Below, piece after piece: positions 6,739 to 55,190 of a DNA stretch of 64,000 nucleotides. The first letter of the stretch is position 1; each line of letters begins with the position of its first letter. The translations under genes were made by a program, and so were the position numbers. Origin of the DNA: Bacteroidia bacterium (GTDB lineage Bacteria > Bacteroidota > Bacteroidia > AKYH767-A > OLB10); the NCBI GenBank assembly GCA_038206385.1, contig JBBRAW010000001.1:3143-67142 (forward strand), in the 5' to 3' direction. The notes beneath the pieces are model-generated. The model did not search any database, was not told the DNA's origin, and saw nothing but the letters and a program-made list of their open reading frames with translations.

Positions 6739-8277
6739 ATGCCAATACGAATGTCGAAGGATGATGATTCCTCCAATTCAAATGATAATTATCCAGGTAA
6801 TGGTGGCAGCGGTGGTGGCAGCGGAAATGGAATTTTAGGAATTCTTTTAATGTTATTTTCTCGCAGTCCGAAATTGATGATTGTTGCTGCAATTTTATTT
6901 GGCGGATATTATTTTTTCGGCGGACAATGTAACTCTTCGCATCCAGCTTCAAGCATCAGCAAAGTATTTAATCTTGGCGCAACACTGGATCAAAAAGTTT
7001 ACGATAAAGCAGAAGTTTACGAGCCACTCGCAGACAACCGCAGCAATCCACTTCCTGAATCTGTATCACTAGAACAATATGCACCCGATCGAAAAAATCA
7101 AGGTCAGCAAGGTTCGTGTGTAGGTTGGGGAAGTACGTATGCAGCCGCAACAATTCTTGAAGCGAAAGCAACGAATAGTGATCCCAATGTAATTGCATTG
7201 AGTCCTGCATATACTTACAATCAAATTCATCTACAAGATTGTCAAGGTTCGTATATTCTTGAAGCTGTAAAGGTGTTGCAAAATGGTGCACTTCCATTCA
7301 ATCGTTTTGAATACACTGATCAAGATTGTAATCGTAAACCAAGTTCATTAGAACGACAAGCAGCAGATAAATTTAAGATCAAAGGTGCGAATCGTTTATC
7401 AAAATCTGGTGATGATTATAAAACAGATTTACTTGCCATCAAACAACATCTTGCACAAGGTGCTCCTGTAGTTATTGGCATGATGGTAGGTGGCACTTTT
7501 ATGCAAGAGATGATGGGTCAGAAAGTGTGGTTGCCTACTCGTGAAGATTACGATATGCAAGGATTTGGAGGGCATTGTATGTCGGTAATTGGATACGATG
7601 ATTACCTCGAAGGAGGAGCCTTTCAAATCATGAATAGTTGGGGTACTGAGTGGGGAGTAAATGGATTAGCATGGGTGCGTTATAAAGATTTTGATTGGTT
7701 TTGTAAAGAGGCTTATGGAATGTATCCGATGAGCAATGAAAAGAAGTTTGCAGATGATGCAATTGATATGCAAATTGGATTAATTAATAACGAAACTAAA
7801 AATGCAATTGCAATAAAATATGAAAGTGAAAATACTTGCGTAACTACTTCGCCAATAAAAAAAGGAACGAAGTTTAAGATGGAAGTAACAAATAATATTG
7901 AATGTTATACTTACATTTTTGGTGAGGAGACAGATGGAAAAAGTTATGTTTTATTTCCGTACACAAAAAAACATTCGCCCTATTGTGGTGTAACTGGAAC
8001 GAGATTATTTCCAAAAGATTATTCGATGCAAGCAGATGAAATCGGAACACGTGATCGCATTGCAATTATTGTTACGCGCGAGCCACTCGATTATGTTGTT
8101 TTAAATGATGCAATGAATAAATCGTCAGCAAAAGGTTTAGCGGCAATGTTAAAAGCTGCGTTGGGTGATAAAATTAGTAGTGATGTGCAAATTGATGGTT
8201 CTACAAAGATTTCTGCAAAGGGCGCATTAAAAGTGGGTCAAGCTTTTGCAATTGTTGTGGAGATAGATAAAAATTAG
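6739..8277 (+). CDS. Papain-like (C1 family) cysteine peptidase domain protein with N-terminal Gly-rich/transmembrane segment and ~170-aa C-terminal extension
   Basis: C1 signature triad in the correct order: Q...QGSCVGWG (oxyanion Gln plus catalytic Cys), GGHCMSVIGYDD (catalytic His), NSWGTEWG (Asn-Ser-Trp). N-terminus: Asp/Ser/Asn-rich stretch, then GGSGGGSGNG, then hydrophobic ILGILLMLF...MIVAAILFGGYYFF. Confidence 0.7.
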   Translation: MPIRMSKDDDSSNSNDNYPGNGGSGGGSGNGILGILLMLFSRSPKLMIVAAILFGGYYFFGGQCNSSHPASSISKVFNLGATLDQKVYDKAEVYEPLADNRSNPLPESVSLEQYAPDRKNQGQQGSCVGWGSTYAAATILEAKATNSDPNVIALSPAYTYNQIHLQDCQGSYILEAVKVLQNGALPFNRFEYTDQDCNRKPSSLERQAADKFKIKGANRLSKSGDDYKTDLLAIKQHLAQGAPVVIGMMVGGTFMQEMMGQKVWLPTREDYDMQGFGGHCMSVIGYDDYLEGGAFQIMNSWGTEWGVNGLAWVRYKDFDWFCKEAYGMYPMSNEKKFADDAIDMQIGLINNETKNAIAIKYESENTCVTTSPIKKGTKFKMEVTNNIECYTYIFGEETDGKSYVLFPYTKKHSPYCGVTGTRLFPKDYSMQADEIGTRDRIAIIVTREPLDYVVLNDAMNKSSAKGLAAMLKAALGDKISSDVQIDGSTKISAKGALKVGQAFAIVVEIDKN

Positions 8278-38750: not shown

Positions 38751-38762
38751 ATTTAAGTTGTT

Positions 38763-38817
38763 TTGAACAGGATTTTTAGGATTACTTTGATTTGCAGGAT
38801 TAAAAAAAGTTGAACAG
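38763..38817. repeat. Single copy of a 48-bp repeat unit (TTGAACAGGATTTTTAGGATTACTTTGATTTGCAGGATTAAAAAAAGTTGAACAG)
   Basis: Near-identical to two tandem copies at 40993..41094. Together they bracket the T9SS-cargo / RES-Xre segment. Confidence 0.7.
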
Positions 38818-38906
38818 TTCCCAACTTATCACAATGTCGCACGCCATAATTTTAAAGTATACAAGATTTCGTGCGACGCATTTTGCAAAGGTGTGCTGCA
38901 AGCCGC

Positions 38907-39839
38907 TTAATTTAAAATTATTTTTCCTCTTAAATTTTGCAACCCTTGGCTCAAACAATATAAATACAATCCGCTTTGAAAACCATCGAGACTTATACTA
39001 CTTTCACTATTTAAGATTACCGAAGAATAAACAATTCTGCCACTTGAATCGAAAAGTTGAAGCAAAGCTACTTGCTGTTTATCATTTATATTTACCTTAA
39101 TACTGTTACCAACTTGATGAATCGTAAACGGCATGTCGGAATTACTATTATCATTTAAACCAACAACGCCAAAACAATCCCCGCTTGAAGTTGAATAGAT
39201 ATAATTTCCATCATCTTTCACACATGATAAATTGGTAGCAGGTCCTCCAATTTGTAGCACTAGTATATTTGTTAATCCTCCCACATCACCAATAGATTCA
39301 ATATAACTATTTCCATCGTGTAGATAAAATATTTTACCATATCCTGTAATTAAAGGATATTGCCCGATACTATCTACAGTTAAAGTGTTCGGACCTTGAG
39401 TTGTAAATGGAGTACTAAACGTGTCGCCAACATTCAAAGAGAAATCAAAGAGTAAATGCTCAACAGTGTCAATAGCTAAATCAAGAAGATATACCTTTCG
39501 AATTAAAGTATCTTCTCGCATAAATTGAGATGATGATATAGATCCGCCATTCGCGCAATTCCCCGTTGTGTCAACTGCAAATGGTTGGCAAAAAAGTCCA
39601 CACTGGCATAAACTTATGACACCACAAGATGCTATTTTTTGATATGTTATATTTTGAATAATTGTGTCACCAAAAAAATATTGCTGCCTCCCACCTGTTG
39701 TGTAACAAAGTGCTGTTGGATCAAGATCCATTAAAGTCCAAAATTTGTTCGATTTTATTAAAGGATGATACGCTTGTCCTTCAACAGCACTGCTAATAAA
39801 ATAAAAAAATGTTGCTGTAATAAAGATTAGTGATTTCAT
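38907..39839 (-). CDS. Secreted hypothetical protein with T9SS CTD
   Basis: Signal peptide MKSLIFITATFFYFISSAVEGQA (start at second Met). C-terminus ...LFDSSGRIVYSSVILNSESSISLDGFQSGLYLYCLSQGLQNLRGKIILN. Confidence 0.65.
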   Translation of the reverse strand: MKSLIFITATFFYFISSAVEGQAYHPLIKSNKFWTLMDLDPTALCYTTGGRQQYFFGDTIIQNITYQKIASCGVISLCQCGLFCQPFAVDTTGNCANGGSISSSQFMREDTLIRKVYLLDLAIDTVEHLLFDFSLNVGDTFSTPFTTQGPNTLTVDSIGQYPLITGYGKIFYLHDGNSYIESIGDVGGLTNILVLQIGGPATNLSCVKDDGNYIYSTSSGDCFGVVGLNDNSNSDMPFTIHQVGNSIKVNINDKQQVALLQLFDSSGRIVYSSVILNSESSISLDGFQSGLYLYCLSQGLQNLRGKIILN

Positions 39840-39934
39840 ATTTTTTTTTAAAATGGTGTACGGTGTTCCTATGCGTTGCGCCACTACCATAATTTAAAAG
39901 TAAGCAAAAATTTCGTTTACCGACTGCTTTAGTT

Positions 39935-40390
39935 TTATCTTTTTATTAAGCGAACATCAAAATGAAATTTGATGCGATCTAAAACTTTCACCTTGCTAAA
40001 ATCAAGATGATTACAATTTAGAATAATGATATGTGAGTTAGTTATTATGCAACTTGGAACTTTAAGAGCAATTGCTTCGCCTTTTAAAATCCAATTTTCT
40101 CCTAAGTCTGATAGCTTAATTGGCGCAGGATACTCGGTCCAATTAATTGGAAGATCCGGAATTTGAAATTCAGTAATTGAATCATCTGGTATTTCGATAG
40201 TCAATAAATCTAGATCAGGTACGATCATAGGCGTTGCATGAACAAGTGTTTCAAGTAACGCAATTTCTTTCGACATACCCGTATATAATACTGGTGTTCC
40301 AGACTTATTCCATCTTCCAGGAAATTTGGCAGCTCCCGTTCCCTTCATATCTGCCGCAAACTTAGTTTTAGTAATTCTATAAACTATCAT
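39935..40390 (-). CDS. RES-domain toxin (RES-Xre toxin-antitoxin family)
   Basis: MIVYRITKTKFAADMKGTGAAKFPGRWNKSGTPVLYTGMSKEIALLETLVHA matches the RES N-terminal consensus (YR......A..G.GA...GGRWN..G...vYta.s..lAlLE.lvH). Start ATG is 1 nt after the antitoxin TAG. Alternative starts lie up to 24 codons upstream. Confidence 0.8.
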   Translation of the reverse strand: MIVYRITKTKFAADMKGTGAAKFPGRWNKSGTPVLYTGMSKEIALLETLVHATPMIVPDLDLLTIEIPDDSITEFQIPDLPINWTEYPAPIKLSDLGENWILKGEAIALKVPSCIITNSHIIILNCNHLDFSKVKVLDRIKFHFDVRLIKR

Positions 40391-40391
40391 G

Positions 40392-40850
40392 CTAACTATA
40401 TACTCCATATTCAATCCGGCCAAGCAAATCTCTAACTTTAGATATGCCATTAGGAATGTCAAGTAATTCCTTTGGCTCTAATTCTCCTAATGCAATATTT
40501 GGTAAATTAAGCCACTTGAAAAAGTTATCCTGACTTTGAAAAACTTCAGTCCCGTAAAGAAAAAGAGATGTTAATTCAAAAAGCTGAACGGAATAATTTC
40601 TATCTAACGTTTTACTTGCTTTTATCCACCTATAAATGGTAGGAGAAGAAATATTTAATAATTCTGCAACAAAATCTCTTGGAAAATTGAAATGAGTTTT
40701 AAAATTATCGATAATGTGAGCATCAACTCCTTGAGTAGCTATGGTTATGAAATCAAAGGCACTTTCTATATCTGATTTTATGTACTTTCTACCTAAAATA
40801 TCCTTGAGAGAATTATAGTGGTCAACCGCAGATGTATCTTTCGTTCTCAT
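40392..40850 (-). CDS. Xre-like antitoxin of the RES-Xre pair (DUF2384 / MbcA/ParS-like toxin-binding domain)
   Basis: C-terminus GELEPKELLDIPNGISKVRDLLGRIEYGVYS matches the conserved ...LL.t..G...V...L.RIEyGVY end of RES-associated antitoxins. Helix-turn-helix-like segment FVAELLNISSPTIYRWIK. Directly upstream of the RES gene. Confidence 0.8.
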   Translation of the reverse strand: MRTKDTSAVDHYNSLKDILGRKYIKSDIESAFDFITIATQGVDAHIIDNFKTHFNFPRDFVAELLNISSPTIYRWIKASKTLDRNYSVQLFELTSLFLYGTEVFQSQDNFFKWLNLPNIALGELEPKELLDIPNGISKVRDLLGRIEYGVYS

Positions 40851-40992
40851 TTGATAATATATTTTATCATTTAACGAATATACAAATAGTTTGTTGCAAT
40901 GTTGGTTTTTTAAAAAAAAATTATTAAAAATGGTTTTTAGCTGATCGCTACATTGTATTCTGAAATTTAAATGTAAATAAAAAATTTGCAGT

Positions 40993-41094
40993 CTTGAACA
41001 CGATCAAGGGATTACTTTGATTAACAGGATTAAAAAAAGTTGAACACGATTAAAGGTATTACTTTGATTAACAGGATTAAAAAAAGTTGAACAG
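40993..41094. repeat. Two tandem copies of the 48-bp repeat TGAACACGAT[C/T]AAGG[G/T]ATTACTTTGATTAACAGGATTAAAAAAAGT
   Basis: Direct sequence comparison with 38763..38817. Degenerate fragments (caggattgataggattaaagg) follow to ~41145. Confidence 0.75.
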
Positions 41095-41159
41095 TTTCGA
41101 TAGCTATCGGAATAAGGGACTAACAGGATTGATAGGATTAAAGGTTTGGTGTACTTTAA

Positions 41160-41800
41160 ACTAGAACTATTTATTATTCACTTATTACTTTTTTGATTGC
41201 TAATTATGTTGACAAAAACTAAAAATTTCTACCTTTTCAGAATTGCAGCCTCTACGTGCAACCAACTACAAACGACTATAAATAATTAATCTTCGGTATT
41301 TGATTTTTTTGTTGCTAGTTTAGTTGACAATAGACAAATAATTTTCTTCCATTTCAAAATTATAACAACTATGTACAAACAAGTACAAACGACTATAAAT
41401 ATTTAATCTTCGCTATTCATTTTTCTGTTTGCTAATTTAGTTGACAAAAGCCAAAAACTTCCAACTTTATAAAAACATCGTAACCAAGTACAAACGAATA
41501 CAAACGACTATAAATAATTAATCTTAGCTATTTGATTTTTTGTTCGCTAATTTAGTTGACAAAAACCAAATAATTCCGCCTCAATAAAAACATCGCAACC
41601 AAGTTCAAACGACTATAAATATTTAATCTTCGCTAATCATTTTTCTGTTTGCTAATTTAGCTGACAAAAACTAAATTTTTCCCAATAATAAAAGTATGTG
41701 AACAAAAAACAAACAACTACAAACGACTATAAATAATTAATCGTTATTATCCGATTTCATTTTGCTAATTTACTAGAAAAAAGTCAAAAATTATAAATGA
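41160..41800. repeat. Tandem array of ~5.5 copies of a 105-117-bp unit in a non-coding gap
   Basis: Units begin CAAACGACTATAAATA[A/T]TTAATCTT at 41269, 41386, 41501, 41606 and 41720, with a partial copy at ~41190. Each has a conserved ~65-bp half (…GCTAATTTAGTTGACAAAA) and a more variable ~45-bp half (…CCAAATAATT.C...AATAAAAACATCG.AACCAAGTA). No ORF spans it. Confidence 0.85.
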
Positions 41801-41880
41801 ATTAAGTACATTCAACACTAAAAATGAAATCGCTTTTTAAAATGATTTGTTCCAAAGTAATCGCTGTTAAGTTAAGTTTT

Positions 41881-42951
41881 CTAATAATATTCATAATAAT
41901 ATTGTGTTATTCTTCGATTCAAAACTGCTTTTTTGTCCGCGTCAATAAGGTGTGTAAATTTTCTTTCTTCTAAAAGATTTTCATCTTTGTTATAAAAATA
42001 TAATATTGTTTGAATTGGTTCTCCATTTTTTCCAACAATTAAAAATTCTTTCAAATTTCCTTTTTTGTCATAAAGATAAAGTGATTGTTGCGAAAGTTGT
42101 GTTGAGTCTCCGCTACTATCATTATAAAGCTCTTCTGTTAATTTCTGTCTCTGTTTATTGAACCCATAATTATAAATAATGAAATTTATCCCGTCGCGAT
42201 ACCAACTTTGATATATCAAGGAGTCCATTACATCATATTTGTAAAGTCTTTTATATTGAGAAACCACTCTGTCGTTTTTATATGATGCTTCTGTTTTTTG
42301 AATTTTTAATCCTTTTTTATTGTAGTAAACTCTTTCAACATAAGAATTTTTAGAACTATTACTATTTCTGCAACTTATAATTTCTAATTGATTATTGCTA
42401 TTGTAGGTATAGGTACACTCATAAATGTTTTTGTCATTTAATTCTTTAGTGGATTTAAGTTTACCATTTTTGCCGTATTCATAAAATACTCTTGTAGGAA
42501 TCGGAATTTCTATTTCATTTCCATTTTTATCTATATCGTAGCTGTAAGTACTTGTTGATTTTCTTTCAACAATATTATCGTTCAAATATTTTGCAGTATC
42601 AATTTCCATCTTCGGTTTAAATACGTCTCCAATTCTTTCATCAATCTTCAATAAAGTATCGCCCAACAGCTTTTGATAATGATGTTCGAAAAGTCTTGTC
42701 GAGTCGATTGCATACTTTCGCATTTCAACGAACTGACCTAATGTGTCAAAATATTGGATTACTTTATCTTCAAAAACCAAGCTATCTGACGAAAAATAAT
42801 TATAAATAAAGGATCTTGATATTATTGATTTTATTATTCTTTGCTTACTATGTTTCGTATCTTTTTTACTCTTTTTATAAGTAGTGTCCGATCCGTTTTG
42901 ACAAGAGAAGATAAAAATTGCCAAAATGAATATTATGTTGCGTTGTCCCAT
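41881..42951 (-). CDS. Hypothetical lipoprotein with Tyr/Asn/Lys-rich repeats
   Basis: Likely start at MGQRNIIFILAIFIFSCQNG (lipobox). Repeated Y.Y..KG.L.. segments (YYNKKGLKIQ, LYDKKGNLKEF). No catalytic motif. Confidence 0.5.
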   Translation of the reverse strand: MGQRNIIFILAIFIFSCQNGSDTTYKKSKKDTKHSKQRIIKSIISRSFIYNYFSSDSLVFEDKVIQYFDTLGQFVEMRKYAIDSTRLFEHHYQKLLGDTLLKIDERIGDVFKPKMEIDTAKYLNDNIVERKSTSTYSYDIDKNGNEIEIPIPTRVFYEYGKNGKLKSTKELNDKNIYECTYTYNSNNQLEIISCRNSNSSKNSYVERVYYNKKGLKIQKTEASYKNDRVVSQYKRLYKYDVMDSLIYQSWYRDGINFIIYNYGFNKQRQKLTEELYNDSSGDSTQLSQQSLYLYDKKGNLKEFLIVGKNGEPIQTILYFYNKDENLLEERKFTHLIDADKKAVLNRRITQYYYEYY

Positions 42952-43081
42952 TTTGGTCAAACTTACAGATAAATTCTTATCCCAACAACTCATCAAAAAT
43001 CTATTAACAAAAAACCCAACATCAAGCAATTCACCTCACAACTTAAAAAAAATTAGTAATTAAATAATGAAACCAATTCCT

Positions 43082-44986
43082 CTAATCTTTCACAACCTTA
43101 AACACTTTCTCCCCACTCAAGTATTTTATTTTCAGAAAATAAACACCCTTAGCAAGGTTAGAAAGATCTAATTGATTAACGTATTTTTTGTTCATCACTT
43201 CATTGCCGATAATATCTGTTAAAAATATTTCTACATAATTTTCAGGTAATCCGGAAATGTTGATGATATCGTTTGTTGGATTCGGATAAACATTTAATTT
43301 TTCGGGTGCGCCGTAATCAACAATGGATGTGATGATCGTATTCTTTTCAATCAACCAAAGACCAGGATCTACGATTATCGAATCATAAATAAATGGAATA
43401 TTCACGATAAAATTTTGGCCAGAAAATGTATTGTTGAAGATGATTATTGTATCCTGCGAAGCATTTTTAAATTTTAATGCAACAGGCATTTCAAAAAATG
43501 AAACTGATGGACTTGATTGTGTTTGATTAAATGTAAGATTGACAACTGCTCCCGTTTGTGATGCACTAATCTGATAATTCGGATATCCTTCTCCAGTAAA
43601 CCAATCATTAAAATACCACGTTAAATTCTGACCATAAGAAGCTTCGAAATGTGATTTTAAAAGAGCTGTTGTTGCAAAGCCATACGCACAACTTACATCT
43701 GCCAAATAATTATTTAACGCAGCAAAAAATGCTGAATCACCAATGATCCATCTAAGCTGATGTAAAATCATAGCACCTTTCGAATACGTTAAGCGAGAAT
43801 CAAAAATTCTATTTACCGATGTTGTATCATCACACCAAACAGAACCACCAGGCTGTGAAAGTATGCTCCCTAATCTCTGAGATTTAAATGGAATCCAATA
43901 TTGCTGATTAAACATGTGCTCATAAGTAAGTGCGGAAAGATATGTTGCGAATCCTTCGTTCAACCAGATGTCGCGCCAACTTGCACAAGTTACTTTATCA
44001 CCAAACCAATGATGCGCGAGTTCATGTGCAATTAACTCATGTCCGAAGCCGCCTACGAAAGTCATTGTTTGATGTTCCATACCGCCACCCCAACCAAATT
44101 GCGCATGACCATATTTTTCATTCTTGAAAGGATAAATACCAAACAAGGAATCATACAATTGCATCACTGGAACAATGTCTAAAGTTTGTGGAACTGCAGA
44201 TGCAGAATCTTCGGGATAAACATAATTCTGTACTTCAACAGTATCATTACCGAAAGGAACAAAATTCGAATAGCGTGCATAATTTGTTACTGCAGCGCAA
44301 ATCAAATAAGTTGCAATAGGGTAACGATGTTTCCAATGGTAAATCATATCGGATCCACTCACAATTTCTTCTACCAATTTTCCATTACTTGCAGCGCGAT
44401 ATGCAGATGGCGTTTGAATATAAACATCAATAGAATCTGCCTTATCCGTTAAACCATTTTTACATGGCCACCAATCACTAGCACCATACGGTTCGGATAA
44501 TGTCCAGATGATTGGCTGAGAAGCATGAGCGTTTTTTATGAATGAACCAAAACCAGATGAAGGCGGAGTTCCTTGATAATAAATTGTAACGGAATCTAAA
44601 TTATTAATTGGAATTGTTGCAGGAAGATTTAATGTTAACACATCTCCATTTTGTGAATGAGTGATCAAACTTTGATGATACTTAACTGAATCAACTGTTA
44701 AATTAATACTTAAATCAAAATTAATTGCATTGAATGAATTTGTATTTACAACAAAATAAGAAGTAACACTTCCAGATACGTAAAGTACATTTGGATCAAT
44801 GTTCCAATGACAATTATAATATTTTACGTCGAAGTCGGTATTAGCAGCAACTGCTTTACGATTTAATTTTCCTAAATGCGCATCACGTTCTGTGTTTGCA
44901 ATTTGCATAAATTCTTTATCGGAAAATTGTTGCGCACTAACAAAGTTTGCGATGAAAATAAAGGTGAGAAGTAACACTTTTTTCAT
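43082..44986 (-). CDS. M1-family zinc aminopeptidase with T9SS C-terminal sorting domain
   Basis: Signal peptide MKKVLLLTFIFIANFVSAQQ. Gluzincin motif HELAHHWFGDKVT...WLNEGFATY (HExxH-x18-E). GGMEHQTM exopeptidase motif (GxMEN variant). C-terminal CTD KLNVYPNPTNDIINI...KGVYFLKIKYLSGEKVFKVVKD. Confidence 0.8.
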   Translation of the reverse strand: MKKVLLLTFIFIANFVSAQQFSDKEFMQIANTERDAHLGKLNRKAVAANTDFDVKYYNCHWNIDPNVLYVSGSVTSYFVVNTNSFNAINFDLSINLTVDSVKYHQSLITHSQNGDVLTLNLPATIPINNLDSVTIYYQGTPPSSGFGSFIKNAHASQPIIWTLSEPYGASDWWPCKNGLTDKADSIDVYIQTPSAYRAASNGKLVEEIVSGSDMIYHWKHRYPIATYLICAAVTNYARYSNFVPFGNDTVEVQNYVYPEDSASAVPQTLDIVPVMQLYDSLFGIYPFKNEKYGHAQFGWGGGMEHQTMTFVGGFGHELIAHELAHHWFGDKVTCASWRDIWLNEGFATYLSALTYEHMFNQQYWIPFKSQRLGSILSQPGGSVWCDDTTSVNRIFDSRLTYSKGAMILHQLRWIIGDSAFFAALNNYLADVSCAYGFATTALLKSHFEASYGQNLTWYFNDWFTGEGYPNYQISASQTGAVVNLTFNQTQSSPSVSFFEMPVALKFKNASQDTIIIFNNTFSGQNFIVNIPFIYDSIIVDPGLWLIEKNTIITSIVDYGAPEKLNVYPNPTNDIINISGLPENYVEIFLTDIIGNEVMNKKYVNQLDLSNLAKGVYFLKIKYLSGEKVFKVVKD

Positions 44987-54354: not shown

Positions 54355-54801
54355 ATGGGTACTTACACACAAATCATTTATCAAATTGTTTTTAGTACAA
54401 AACACCGCGATCCTGTCATGATCAAAAAAAATCGCGACGAACTTTATGGATATATTTCTGGGATTATCAGAAACAAAAAATGTGTGGTCTATAAAATTAA
54501 TGGTGTAGAAGATCATCTCCACATCTTAACTGACTTACATCCTTCAATTGCGTTAGCTGATTTGATTAAGGATATAAAAATTGCCAGTTCAAAATATATA
54601 AAAGAAAAGAATCTTTTTCCAGGTTTTATTGGTTGGCAAAGTGGATATGGTGCTTTTACCTATTCGGCCAACAGAAAAGAAATATTGATCAACTACATTA
54701 AAAATCAAGAAGCACATCATTTGAAAAAATCTTACCATGATGAGTCTGTCGAATTACTTCGTGAACACGCAATAGATTATGAGGAGAATTATCTTTTTTA
54801 A
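54355..54801 (+). mobile_element. IS200/IS605-like Y1 (HUH) tyrosine transposase, stand-alone without tnpB; probable REP-associated tyrosine transposase (RAYT)
   Basis: 148 aa. HUH motif DHLHIL. Catalytic-Tyr region NYIKNQEAHH (Y-x3-Q, as in IS608 TnpA). No tnpB nearby. Directly followed by a REP-like palindrome cluster. Confidence 0.7.
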
Positions 54802-55190
54802 TTCAACCCCTTTCAGGGTTGTATAACTTTTTCTTTCTAGCACCACATTTCATGTGGTGCTAGAAAGGTTCAACCCCTTCAGGGTTGAAAAAACACTCTC
54901 TATGAAATAACATACAACCCTGAAGGGGGTTGAAAAAACACTCTCTATTAAATAACATACAACCCTGAAGGGGGTTGAACAGCAAGAGGAGTCAACCCTG
55001 AAGGGGGTTGAACAGTAAGAGGAGTCAACCCTGAAGGGGGTTGAACAGCAGTAACGCAACATGAAATGTTGTGCCGTAAAGCGACATGAAATGTAGCGCT
55101 GCGGCACAACAAGGAAATACCATCTTTCAACCCTGAAGGGTTTGAACAGCTCAAACGCAACATTTCATGTTGCGTTTGAGAGAGTTTTTT
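54802..55190. repeat. Cluster of palindromic REP/BIME-like units of two families
   Basis: Family 1 is CAACCCTGAAGGGGGTTG or its complement CAACCCCTTCAGGGTTG, with copies at ~54804, 54871, 54915, 54960, 54994, 55026 and 55138. Family 2 is xACAT-GAA/TTC-ATGTx hairpins (ccacatttcatgtgg, caacatgaaatgttg, gcgacatgaaatgtagcgc, gcaacatttcatgttgc). Higher-order duplications include aaaaaacactctctat.aaataacatacaaccctgaagggggttga twice. The last hairpin (55150-55180) plus a T-run forms a plus-strand terminator. Confidence 0.8.

Follow-up and report, generated by a model that had tools for sequence, protein, structure and literature searches.

A ~115-bp tandem repeat next to a toxin-antitoxin cassette is one locus of a dispersed intergenic repeat family in uncultured Bacteroidota and may consist of protein-recognition modules

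What is the array of long tandem repeats that fills much of a non-coding gap in this Bacteroidota genome, and does it have a role in its host? The array lies in the window, i.e., the whole stretch of 64,000 nucleotides of DNA that was analysed. Three kinds of explanation were offered in a preliminary description of the locus: a duplicated small-RNA gene or promoter array, iteron-like protein-binding sites of the adjacent element, and a satellite expansion. The satellite and the protein-binding-site readings survive here in modified form, while small-RNA genes, a promoter array and iterons of the adjacent element are not supported.

The array was placed between a toxin-antitoxin (TA) cassette and a lipoprotein gene, and Pfam bears this out: the cassette is of the Xre-RES type, and the other neighbour is lipoprotein-like but belongs to no Pfam family. 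The gap is indeed non-coding, as there is no ORF of more than 30 aa inside the array. The genes within ~3 kb of the array encode an ABC ATPase, a T9SS-tail protein, the RES and Xre proteins, the lipoprotein-like protein and an M1 peptidase. The contig of a relative of 93% identity (L003) ends at the M1 peptidase gene, and a 100%-identical lipoprotein is encoded on contig P0121 (122.8 kb). The features surrounding the array are the following:

39935-40462, minus strand: RES-domain toxin gene (Pfam PF08808, E = 3e-21)
40392-40850, minus strand: Xre/MbcA/ParS-type antitoxin gene (Pfam PF09722 and PF20432), whose start faces the box-1 side of the array
40851-40926, minus strand: conserved upstream region of the TA cassette with a -7-like box, TATATTCG; boundary of the cassette, with the array outside
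40994-41142, plus strand: R47, a separate 47-bp repeat in the stretch from the TA cassette to the array (2.2 copies and a decayed third one)
41881-42993, minus strand: lipoprotein-like gene without a Pfam family, whose 3' end faces the array

The units of the array are antisense to the TA genes of the window, and R47 is not part of the 115-bp family described below.

The reported tandem array of 105-117-bp repeats is real, as Tandem Repeats Finder (41189-41742, period 115, 4.9 copies, 72% matches, score 471), a repeat search (4-6 copies with start-to-start spacings of 115, 117, 115, 105 and 113/114) and shuffled sequences agree. The family profile resolves six head-to-tail units at 41148-41828, with periods of 115, 117, 115, 105 and 114. 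The 23-mer CAAACGACTATAAATAWTTAATC (box 1) has five exact matches, all on the plus strand, versus none in 100 shuffles, and TGCTAATTTAGTTGACAAAA (box 2) occurs six times at ≤3 mismatches versus 0.06 expected. The units and boxes, all on the plus strand, are:

41148-41261: U0, degenerate edge unit with box 1 decayed (AACTAGAACTATTTATTATTCAC) and box 2 kept (TGCTAATTATGTTGACAAAA); nhmmer profile E = 6e-14
41263-41379: U1, full unit of subtype A, 117 bp
41380-41494: U2, full unit of subtype B, 115 bp
41495-41599: U3, full unit of subtype A, 105 bp, with a shortened linker
41600-41713: U4, full unit of subtype B, 114 bp, its first 50 columns 96% identical to U2
41714-41828: U5, degenerate edge unit with box 1 intact and box 2 decaying (TGCTAATTTACTAGAAAAAA)
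41269-41291: box 1, CAAACGACTATAAATAWTTAATC, with exact copies also at 41386, 41501, 41606 and 41720
41430-41449: box 2, TGCTAATTTAGTTGACAAAA, the most conserved block of the family, with copies at 41198, 41313, 41430, 41545, 41650 and 41763

Each unit consists of an indel-free module and, after it, an A-rich linker of 30-45 bp that is rich in indels. Gaps make up ≤2.7% per alignment column in columns 1-76 and 19% on average beyond column 76, and the conserved part is therefore 76 bp rather than the ~65 bp first described. The module contains two boxes, CGACTAyAAAyATTTAwT..TTCG (box 1) and CTAATTTAGTTGACAAAA (box 2). Nor are TTGACA and TATAAAT present in every unit, as was stated: TTGACA is found only in U0-U3 (CTGACA in U4, CTAGAA in U5), and TATAAAT in U1-U5. 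Pairwise identity among the window units is only 64-84%, so the array is old and no assembly artefact. Similarity alternates in the first halves of the units (U2-U4 96%, U1-U3 88% identical), while the linkers pair U2 with U3 (79%). On alignment the window units are thus shown to be mosaics, the pattern that would be expected from repeated unequal exchange in different registers.

CRISPR arrays consist of near-identical direct repeats of ~21-48 bp with unique spacers of similar length. That the array is not CRISPR-like was rightly noted from the start: its conserved part is 76 bp long, and its 'spacers' are 37-79% identical to each other, with variants that recur at other loci. The accompanying statement that cas genes are absent holds for the ~3 kb around the array.

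A search beyond the window for the conserved half, as suggested in the preliminary description, places the unit in a dispersed family in related genomes. By the unit profile, the array is shown to be one locus of an apparently lineage-restricted, dispersed family of ~115-bp intergenic tandem repeats, named R115, which occurs elsewhere in related Bacteroidota MAGs as solo units and arrays of 2-8 copies at at least ten intergenic sites. When the GTDB species representatives were scanned with box 2, 16 loci were obtained. Ten of these contain full units by the nhmmer profile: eight in one MAG (one being the L005 site again) and one each in two other MAGs. The copy number differs from locus to locus (1, 2, 3, 3, 3, 3, 4, 5 and 8 at the confirmed loci), and the family alignment comprises 37 units. 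On the related contig L005, a 3-copy array (period 117) and a solo unit lie next to a 69%-identical homologue of the window's lipoprotein gene, with the solo unit behind this homologue. A 21-mer from box 1 has no match in the GTDB representatives and only one in metagenomes, a single chance match on a GC-rich, eukaryote-like contig. R115 is a previously undescribed non-coding repeat family of a small group of uncultured Bacteroidota. All of the relatives are MAG contigs, several of which break inside arrays, and R115 explains these contig breaks. The family also marks variable islets of accessory genes and would supply VNTR markers.

Absence of the repeat outside this strain was named at the outset as a sign of a neutral minisatellite; R115 is, however, found at many loci of related genomes, and the manner of its conservation is informative. 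Within the same units, the boxes are 86-94% and the linkers 45-58% identical. Box 2 has an identity of 0.86 among the units of the window array, 0.86 when these are compared with other genomes, and 0.87 when the other genomes are compared with one another, versus 0.58, 0.45 and 0.56, respectively, for the linker. Box 1 is identical at 23 of 23 positions in five window units, and the linkers of the same units are 37-79% identical. Because box 2 retains 86% identity both within the array and between genomes, while the linker falls to 45-58%, the comparison indicates that selection probably acts on every unit. Over the distance at which box 2 is still 86% identical between genomes, the sole comparable neighbouring protein has drifted to 69%. 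No 10.5-bp helical periodicity was found in the conservation of the module.

It is rather unlikely, though likelier than the other alternatives, that R115 is a selfish or neutral interspersed minisatellite that spreads by recombination or hitch-hiking, grows by slippage or unequal crossing-over, and has no host role. The dispersal of the family, its variable copy number, the decayed edges of the arrays and the mosaic units would all fit such an element. So would the location of the arrays in variable islets beside truncated genes and an IS110 remnant, the occurrence of head-unit-tail blocks in different contexts (for the head, see below), and the fact that the TA cassette of the window does not need the adjoining R115 copy. 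Concerted evolution, or the needs of a recombinase or transposase, would then be the sole reason why the boxes seem conserved. However, concerted evolution would homogenise whole units, linkers included, and the identity of box 2 does not drop when genomes, rather than units of one array, are compared. A transposase acts on the ends of its element and would have no need of sites in each internal unit, and no credible terminal inverted repeats (TIRs) were found around five complete R115 elements, where only short AT-rich matches of 70-90% appeared.

If every unit is under selection, a product encoded in it has to be considered. Tandem small-RNA genes, as initially proposed, are not supported, since there is no clear fold above shuffles, no terminator and no Rfam match. 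When the units were folded against shuffles, a structure check recommended earlier, the four core units gave z values of -1.6 to +1.0; the edge unit U5 alone reached -2.0 to -2.7, owing to a hairpin that it forms with flanking sequence. Its spacer and the flank just past the stop codon of the lipoprotein gene are joined by a 12-bp inverted repeat (41752-41763 with 41821-41832). RNAalifold on the 37 units gives 0 conserved pairs on either strand, there are no intrinsic terminators inside the array, and Rfam yields nothing at the gathering score (the best weak match, E = 0.3, lies outside the array).

The units do not encode a conserved peptide either. Open stretches shift frame between units, and the window units have no start codon, two of them having early stops. 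The forward TTG-initiated peptide MTKAKFF... changes frame or stops between units. The reverse peptide MFVVGCKCL... (~26 aa), present in many relatives' units, ends in three different frames; its ORF has charged residues and no ATG in the window units. Repeats of type I toxin small ORFs (Ibs/Sib or Ldr/Rdl type) are rejected, as there is no conserved small hydrophobic ORF per unit.

As to promoters, the proposed promoter array of TTGACA and TATAAAT fails as a sigma-70 promoter on order and spacing: TATAAAT is located 41 nt upstream of TTGACA, so the pair cannot act as -35/-10, and it is not kept in relatives, where TACAAAC replaces it. The Bacteroidota promoter consensus is TTTG-N19-21-TAnnTTTG, and the only sequence in the unit that comes near is TTCG-N20-TAATTTAG. 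It is improbable that each unit is a weak plus-strand promoter of this type or a source of an unstructured small RNA; the short A-rich transcript could then reach the 3' end of a convergent gene in antisense. Such a promoter would account for the ≥90% conservation of TTCG (columns 30-33) and TAATTTAG (columns 54-61), for their fixed spacing of 20 nt in 35 of the 37 units, and for the stretch between them being the least conserved part of the module. The two elements are each one mismatch off this consensus, and promoter activity was measured for BrickBuilt, an element discussed below (PMC4596501).

The -7 boxes in use in these genomes speak against it. Upstream of genes, TAnnTTTG is found 26 times in the sense orientation versus 13 in antisense and 8 in coding sequence, and TAnnTTCG 15 versus 5 and 2; TAnnTTAG, the form in box 2, is not enriched (4 sense, 3 antisense, 8 coding). 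The clade uses Bacteroidota-type -7 boxes TAnnTT(T/C)G, and TAnnTTAG is not a used variant in it. Moreover, conservation does not fall off in the 15 nt past the putative -7 box, as it usually would in a promoter, and an RNA source would have to do without terminators, a conserved fold or an Rfam family. On the reverse strand, no promoter conserved across units was found by eye.

The arrays are nevertheless oriented with respect to genes. At all 10 scorable arrays, the gene on the box-1 side points away from the repeats and has its start 90-620 bp off; perhaps 7-8 of these arrays are independent, since L005b has the lipoprotein context in common with the window, and a duplicated flank adjoins two L021 arrays. 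On the far side, seven genes are convergent and three co-oriented; 3'-3' gaps number zero, and the arrays in tandem-type gaps have the same polarity in 7 of 7 cases. This polarity could instead stem from an insertion mechanism tied to replication or gene strand. A shared head of ~60 bp (...CTAACTATTTTATTTACGAATATACCAATTCAAATTCAATTTCAAA) is located at the box-1 edge of five sites on four contigs of relatives. Four genes lie behind it, three of them visibly unrelated to one another and one without a Pfam match; the contig of the fifth site ends before any gene. The reverse complement of the head presents TAyATTCG 75-90 nt ahead of the start codons, and this -7-type box recurs in the conserved Xre promoter region. 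The window array has no head, and no gene family was found to recur next to R115 arrays.

Is the array then part of the TA cassette beside it? Three homologous loci were compared in sequence and a fourth by its gene calls only. The Xre-RES homologues (84-86% identical) have only 123-140 bp upstream, without an array, and their homology to the window ends at 40914-40926; the array is therefore not part of the cassette. These homologues also weigh against iterons tied to the adjacent element, as first suggested, and more generally against operators bound by the Xre antitoxin and against repeats from the origin or partition locus of an integrated plasmid or phage. The location of the array on the promoter side of the HTH antitoxin gene and the palindrome CTAATTTAG within box 2 would suit such sites. 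However, R115 adjoins unrelated genes elsewhere, at at least ten chromosomal-type loci, its 115-bp period is far from iteron geometry, and no rep or par gene is nearby. R115 has no match in 72,556 plasmids and 50,697 phages, and the IMG/VR matches are chance 19-mers. The operator or iteron reading appears largely refuted and hardly credible at this locus. In ToxI-like type III TA systems, tandem repeats of 34-40 nt lie directly upstream of an endoribonuclease toxin gene and are co-transcribed with it; this class is rejected because the period is 115 bp and the adjacent TA is a type II Xre-RES pair with close homologues that have no array.

The boundary of the cassette draws attention to the junctions themselves. 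R115 units might be recombination sites at gene-cassette junctions, integron attC-like in function but recognised as double-stranded DNA. They would then be the landing sites of an unrecognised Bacteroidota cassette-exchange system. Such a system would replace one accessory module (TA pair, small lipoprotein, Bro-N protein or other) by another at fixed polarity, with the tandem copies left behind as scars of successive rounds. This is considered very unlikely, although in L005 and L021 the arrays are interspersed among series of accessory genes that share one orientation, with the polarity to flanking genes fixed as above. In two genomes, the lipoprotein gene is still followed by a unit, but different modules come next (Xre-RES in the window, HipA_2-DUF3037 in L005), and the window islet 38754-43082 is replaced wholesale in L002, the only syntenic relative. 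On the other hand, the borders of the L002 islet are without an R115 unit, no recombinase gene adjoins any array seen, and cassette systems do not yield tandem sites without intervening cassettes. Integron attC sites are imperfect palindromes (R''-L''/L'-R') that fold as hairpins, with the integron integrase nearby. The R115 units have neither a hairpin nor attC-like symmetry, and no integrase lies next to any array.

The explanation preferred here, tentatively, is that R115 is a BrickBuilt/MIRU/BOX-like interspersed minisatellite, the units of which are putative protein-recognition modules upstream of accessory-gene promoters. Membership of the array in the family is documented directly by the unit profile; the mechanism we infer as follows. 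Because the boxes are kept while the linker decays, and no RNA fold, ORF or usable promoter is present, each unit would most likely be a recognition module for a sequence-specific DNA-binding protein, and the array a multi-site binding platform. The conservation of the module and its repetition up to eight times per locus signal such a ligand. Because the box-1 side faces gene starts and the head is fused to it in relatives, the platform would most likely act on, or travel with, the promoters of accessory genes (toxin-antitoxin, Bro-N, AraC and small lipoprotein genes), as a mobile promoter or an upstream-regulatory module. The window copy may be a headless remnant left at a cassette junction, since the head is missing and the TA cassette's own promoter is 220 bp further on. 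A regulatory role at the window locus is no more than putative, because the homologues of the TA cassette evidently function without an array. With its partner protein found, R115 would stand as a new module, either regulatory or of mobile DNA, in an uncultured clade of Bacteroidota that has received little study.

Several known systems resemble R115 in part. Mycobacterial interspersed repetitive units (MIRUs) are tandem units of 40-100 bp at many intergenic loci; they sit inside operons, and their small ORFs overlap the neighbouring stop and start codons. R115 shares with MIRUs, reportedly described by Supply et al. in 1997, tandem intergenic units, a copy number that depends on the locus, and a fixed orientation to flanking genes (7 of 7 tandem-type gaps, a small sample of partly non-independent loci). 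In contrast to MIRUs, it has no stable frame, its arrays lie 90-620 bp from gene starts, and no small ORFs overlapping neighbouring stop or start codons are found in its units; the phyla differ and the sequences are unrelated.

The BOX elements of Streptococcus pneumoniae have the structure boxA-(boxB)n-boxC, in which boxA and boxC are inverted ends; they form stable stem-loops and can influence neighbouring genes. BOX and R115 are both modular, dispersed intergenic elements with one module tandemly amplified to a variable extent, but R115 shows neither a conserved fold nor TIRs. Putative mobile promoters (Matus-Garcia, Nijveen and van Passel 2012, as cited in PMC4596501) appear similar in that a homologous promoter-like head precedes different genes at four sites of a related MAG. 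R115 differs from them in its tandem 115-bp units without a recognisable promoter, and in the window copy being without a head.

BrickBuilt is a minisatellite-containing MITE of Porphyromonas gingivalis that consists of a leader, a minisatellite and a tail, occupies 19 intergenic sites, has promoter activity, and varies in copy number from 1 to 22.8 between loci (Klein et al. 2015, PMC4596501). Both elements belong to the same phylum and are strictly intergenic and dispersed, with an internal tandem repeat that holds conserved and non-conserved positions and a copy number that depends on the locus. In both, conserved flanking sequences ('leader') are present at some loci and absent at others, and there is an association with promoters and the idea of a putative mobile promoter. 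The R115 unit, on the other hand, is 115 bp long versus 23 bp in BrickBuilt, without sequence similarity, and is built from a 76-bp indel-free module and a variable linker; no TIRs were found in R115, and its 'head' and 'tail' resemble decayed units, whereas those of BrickBuilt are distinct modules. With 1 to 8 copies at at least ten loci, all intergenic, R115 has the distribution of a BrickBuilt-type MITE. Were it only a selfish minisatellite, the list of bacterial interspersed minisatellites (MIRU, BOX and BrickBuilt) would still gain a member with a much longer unit.

In the window, Tandem Repeats Finder calls a repeat array at 41189-41742 (period 115, 4.9 copies, 72% matches, score 471), and a gapless search for repeats groups the copies into families of 4-6 members spaced 115, 117, 115, 105 and 113/114 apart. 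The 23-mer CAAACGACTATAAATAWTTAATC has five exact matches on the + strand (none in 100 shuffles), and TGCTAATTTAGTTGACAAAA has six matches at ≤3 mismatches versus 0.06 expected. The repeats of 105-117 bp noted in the preliminary description thus stand, while their number, about 5.5 at first, becomes six units (U0 to U5) by the family profile, which places them at 41148-41828 with both edge units degenerate. The gap had been described as free of plausible ORFs and bounded by a toxin-antitoxin (TA) cassette and a lipoprotein gene. Both points hold: no ORF longer than 30 aa is found inside the array, and the neighbours are as follows.

39935-40462, minus strand: RES toxin gene (Pfam)
40392-40850, minus strand: Xre/MbcA-type antitoxin gene (Pfam)
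ending at 41881: lipoprotein-like gene, with a signal peptide and Cys lipobox visible in the sequence and no Pfam family

The array is almost certainly a member of a dispersed repeat family, here called R115. With the lipoprotein-like gene as anchor, a 69%-identical homologue is found in GCA_043758125.1 ('Bacteroidota bacterium GL65_UP_metabinner_16', hereafter GL65), where there are three tandem copies with a period of 117 and, directly downstream of the homologue, a solo unit; order and polarity match those of the window. One block of the unit, box 2, is common to the two genomes. When GTDB representatives were scanned with TYGCTAATTTAGYTGASAAAA from box 2, 16 loci matched, of which 10 contain full units according to an nhmmer profile built from nine units; the remaining six are chance, only the 19-21-mer being matched. 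The confirmed loci comprise eight contigs of the GL65 MAG (one re-fetching the lipoprotein site) and single contigs of two further MAGs: a Sphingobacteriaceae one, whose contig overlaps a GL65 array with identical sequence, and one labelled Flavobacterium and belonging to the same project. Conservation outside the strain, proposed earlier as a test, is therefore observed in related MAGs. Copy numbers at the confirmed loci are 1, 2, 3, 3, 3, 3, 4, 5 and 8, and, because five arrays sit at contig ends, the true copy number in the GL65 genome is probably higher. A 21-mer of box 1 has no match in GTDB representatives or IMG/VR and a single chance match in metagenomes, and no R115 units occur in phage and plasmid collections.

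In an alignment of 37 R115 units, columns 1-76 are practically indel-free (maximum gap fraction 2.7%); the conserved part is thus 76 bp rather than the ~65 bp first assigned to it. It contains box 1 (CGACTAyAAAyATTTAwTAwTCG), identical at 23/23 positions in five window units, a less conserved stretch of 20 nt and box 2 (CTAATTTAGTTGACAAAA-CC-AAA), the best conserved block of the unit. From column 77 onward lies an A-rich, poorly conserved linker of variable length. TTGACA and TATAAAT, at first ascribed to every unit, are present in four and five units, respectively; TATAAAT lies 41 nt upstream of TTGACA, and therefore they do not constitute a -35/-10 pair.

Identity of unit parts (within the window array; window versus other genomes; among other genomes)
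Box 1: 0.94; 0.75; 0.84
Box 2: 0.86; 0.86; 0.87
Linker: 0.58; 0.45; 0.56

Gene conversion does not leave so sharp a contrast between the boxes and the linker of one and the same unit, which instead suggests that the boxes of every unit are under purifying selection. Whole units of the window array are only 64-84% identical to one another, and the array is therefore old. The units are also mosaics: subtypes alternate over the first 50 columns (U2-U4 96%, U1-U3 88%) and the linker of U2 pairs with that of U3 (79%), as unequal exchange in different registers would give. A selfish or neutral minisatellite, in which this mosaicism has to be set beside the box/linker contrast, is an unlikely alternative, but one to be taken seriously. 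What the data establish is that R115 is non-coding, dispersed and able to form arrays, and that its units combine selected boxes with a rigid core of 76 bp.

With regard to structured RNA, the four core units show no folding advantage over shuffles (z -1.6 to +1.0). The edge unit U5 alone reaches z -2.0 to -2.7, owing to a hairpin with its flank.

41752-41763 and 41821-41832: perfect 12-bp inverted repeat (CGATTTCATTTT / AAAATGAAATCG) with a 57-nt loop

It links U5 to the flank directly downstream of the lipoprotein stop codon and might be a terminator of that gene. RNAalifold finds no conserved pairs in R115 units on either strand, Rfam has no match for the window or nine related loci, and there are no terminator-like sites inside the window array; these results speak against the tandem small-RNA genes suggested earlier. 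A coding function is rejected as well, the open stretches shifting frame, stopping early or lacking a start codon from unit to unit. The array is not CRISPR-like, as had been judged from the outset, since conservation runs over a long stretch, different loci share 'spacers' that are also related to one another, and the nearby genes include no cas gene. A ToxI-like array and a part of the TA cassette are also rejected: the array is absent from Xre-RES homologues with 84-86% amino-acid identity, whose upstream gaps measure 123-140 bp, and their nucleotide homology to the window stops at 40914-40926. The units lie next to this cassette in the window, and its homologues do without them; an operator or iteron of the adjacent element is hardly credible. 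Neither the hairpin nor the terminal inverted repeat of an attC-like element or classical MITE was found.

With the M1 peptidase as anchor, the closest syntenic relative is L002 (GCA_025352785.1), with flanks of 83-87% nucleotide identity. L002 has the ABC transporter and the M1 peptidase as in the window, and no R115 array. The cargo between them (L002 10665-13133) is entirely different: a small two-gene pair, which resembles a TA system only by the size and arrangement of its genes, and two further small genes, versus the T9SS protein, RES-Xre, repeats and lipoprotein gene of the window. Positions 38754-43082 of the window are therefore a variable, replaceable islet, which contains a separate 47-bp repeat, R47.

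38763-38819: R47 copy in the same orientation as those at 40994-41142, 13 nt after the ABC-transporter stop codon
40994-41142: R47 (TTGAACA.GAT...GGATTACTTTGATTAACAGGATTAAAAAAAG), 2.2 copies and a decayed copy, beside the 115-bp array

The former falls exactly on the left edge of the islet, and these direct repeats, which bracket the genes for the T9SS-tail protein, RES and Xre, look like att-type or accretion scars. No recombinase gene is present inside the bracketed module. That R115 units are recombination sites at cassette junctions is very doubtful. Between R47 and the array lies a perfect 12-bp palindrome, CGATAGCTATCG (41098-41109), which could be an operator. Elsewhere in the window, an intergenic gap at 54800-55180 contains about eight REP-like hairpin repeats (CAACCC-TGAAGG-GGGTTGAA) arranged in tandem with units of 45 and 33 bp. 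Against an expectation of 0.55, the window has seven copies of the 9-mer GTTGAACAG, five of them in the REP-like cluster or R47.

On the box-1 side, the nearest gene starts 90-620 bp off and reads away from the array in all 10 scorable arrays; on the opposite side, the gene has its end toward the array in seven cases and reads away from it in three, and none of the 10 lies in a 3'-3' gap. The one-sided probability is ~0.001 under random placement and orientation, and ~0.016 (two-sided) for the seven orientation-informative tandem gaps alone. When shared contexts are considered (the window with the GL65 solo unit, and two arrays in contig L021), five to eight loci are independent, and the polarity rule is suggestive. 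The adjoining genes are mostly accessory: Xre-RES, ParE, HipA_2/DUF3037, Bro-N, AraC, DoxX, small lipoproteins, a truncated AAA ATPase and, judged by eye from its ORF, a fragment of an IS110-type transposase.

Some of these contexts have further features. Contig L023 (243-1604) has a 3-unit array with truncated genes on either side: the AAA-ATPase ORF terminates within array-derived sequence, the transposase fragment lacks its N-terminal part, and the upstream ORF resembles, by eye, the C-terminus of a restriction-modification methyltransferase; the locus may be a defence island. In L021, ~250 bp (the 3' end of a Bro-N-type gene and a terminator-like hairpin) are duplicated at 2571-2820 and 6775-7024 together with the adjoining array; R115 arrays therefore move as blocks with neighbouring sequence. 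A GC-rich element of ~110 nt (…GGTTCCCCCGAAAAAAACGGGGCAAGCTGTGCAACATGGCC…GTGCGTCCTACGGACGCAAC…), with no Rfam match and a fold z-score of only -1.3, lies beside arrays on three contigs at 96-98% identity (L015 641-800; L011 1785-1890, minus strand; L010 1-63).

The -7 boxes of genes in these genomes are of the Bacteroidota type.

Counts of -7 motifs within 120 nt upstream of 115 ORFs (sense; antisense; coding)
TAnnTTTG: 26; 13; 8
TAnnTTCG: 15; 5; 2
TAnnTTAG, the form in box 2: 4; 3; 8

Because of these counts, TAATTTAG of box 2 is a weak promoter candidate, despite its fixed spacing of 20 nt from a conserved TTCG. An array of outward promoters or of unstructured RNAs, to which this spacing and these counts both pertain, is improbable. 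A promoter-like sequence does occur outside the units: GL65 arrays have a common head of ~60 bp at the box-1 edge (five sites on four contigs). In reverse complement the head is ...TTGGTAyATTCGTAAATAAAATAG..., and its TAyATTCG lies 75-90 nt upstream of the start codon of the neighbouring gene. This sequence resembles the conserved promoter region of the window Xre gene, GTATATTCGTTAAATGATAAAATA, at the position of which a relative has the canonical TAAATTTG. The gene behind the head varies by locus (a 283-aa protein without a Pfam family; a small ORF, then HipA_2; a SnoaL-like lipoprotein; a small gene upstream of a ParE toxin gene), which fits the published idea of mobile promoters. The window array has no head.

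Each unit would be a recognition module for a sequence-specific DNA-binding protein, and the array a multi-site platform for it. In view of the polarity rule and the head fused to arrays in relatives, the platform would most likely act on, or move with, the promoters of accessory genes. This reading of the sequence patterns is preferred, though held tentatively and at somewhat less than even confidence. In the window, R47 separates the headless array from a self-sufficient TA promoter, and this copy may therefore be a passive remnant at the cassette junction.

The R115 family is real and under constraint, and a literature search turned up no published description of it, nor was there any Rfam, plasmid or phage match. 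MIRU contain overlapping small ORFs; R115 is similar in unit size range and polarity, but is without such ORFs. BOX elements are built from stem-loops; R115 shares with them an amplified internal module, but not the stem-loops. Among published elements, BrickBuilt of Porphyromonas gingivalis comes closest to R115 (PMC4596501). It is composed of a leader, a 23-nt minisatellite and a tail and is found at 19 intergenic sites; its copy number varies, leaders and tails may be partial, TIRs and TSDs are present, and promoter activity has been measured. R115 resembles BrickBuilt in its dispersed intergenic minisatellite architecture and its link to promoters. In contrast, no TIRs were found in R115, which sets it apart from MITEs as far as their features could be compared, and its unit is bipartite and five-fold longer.
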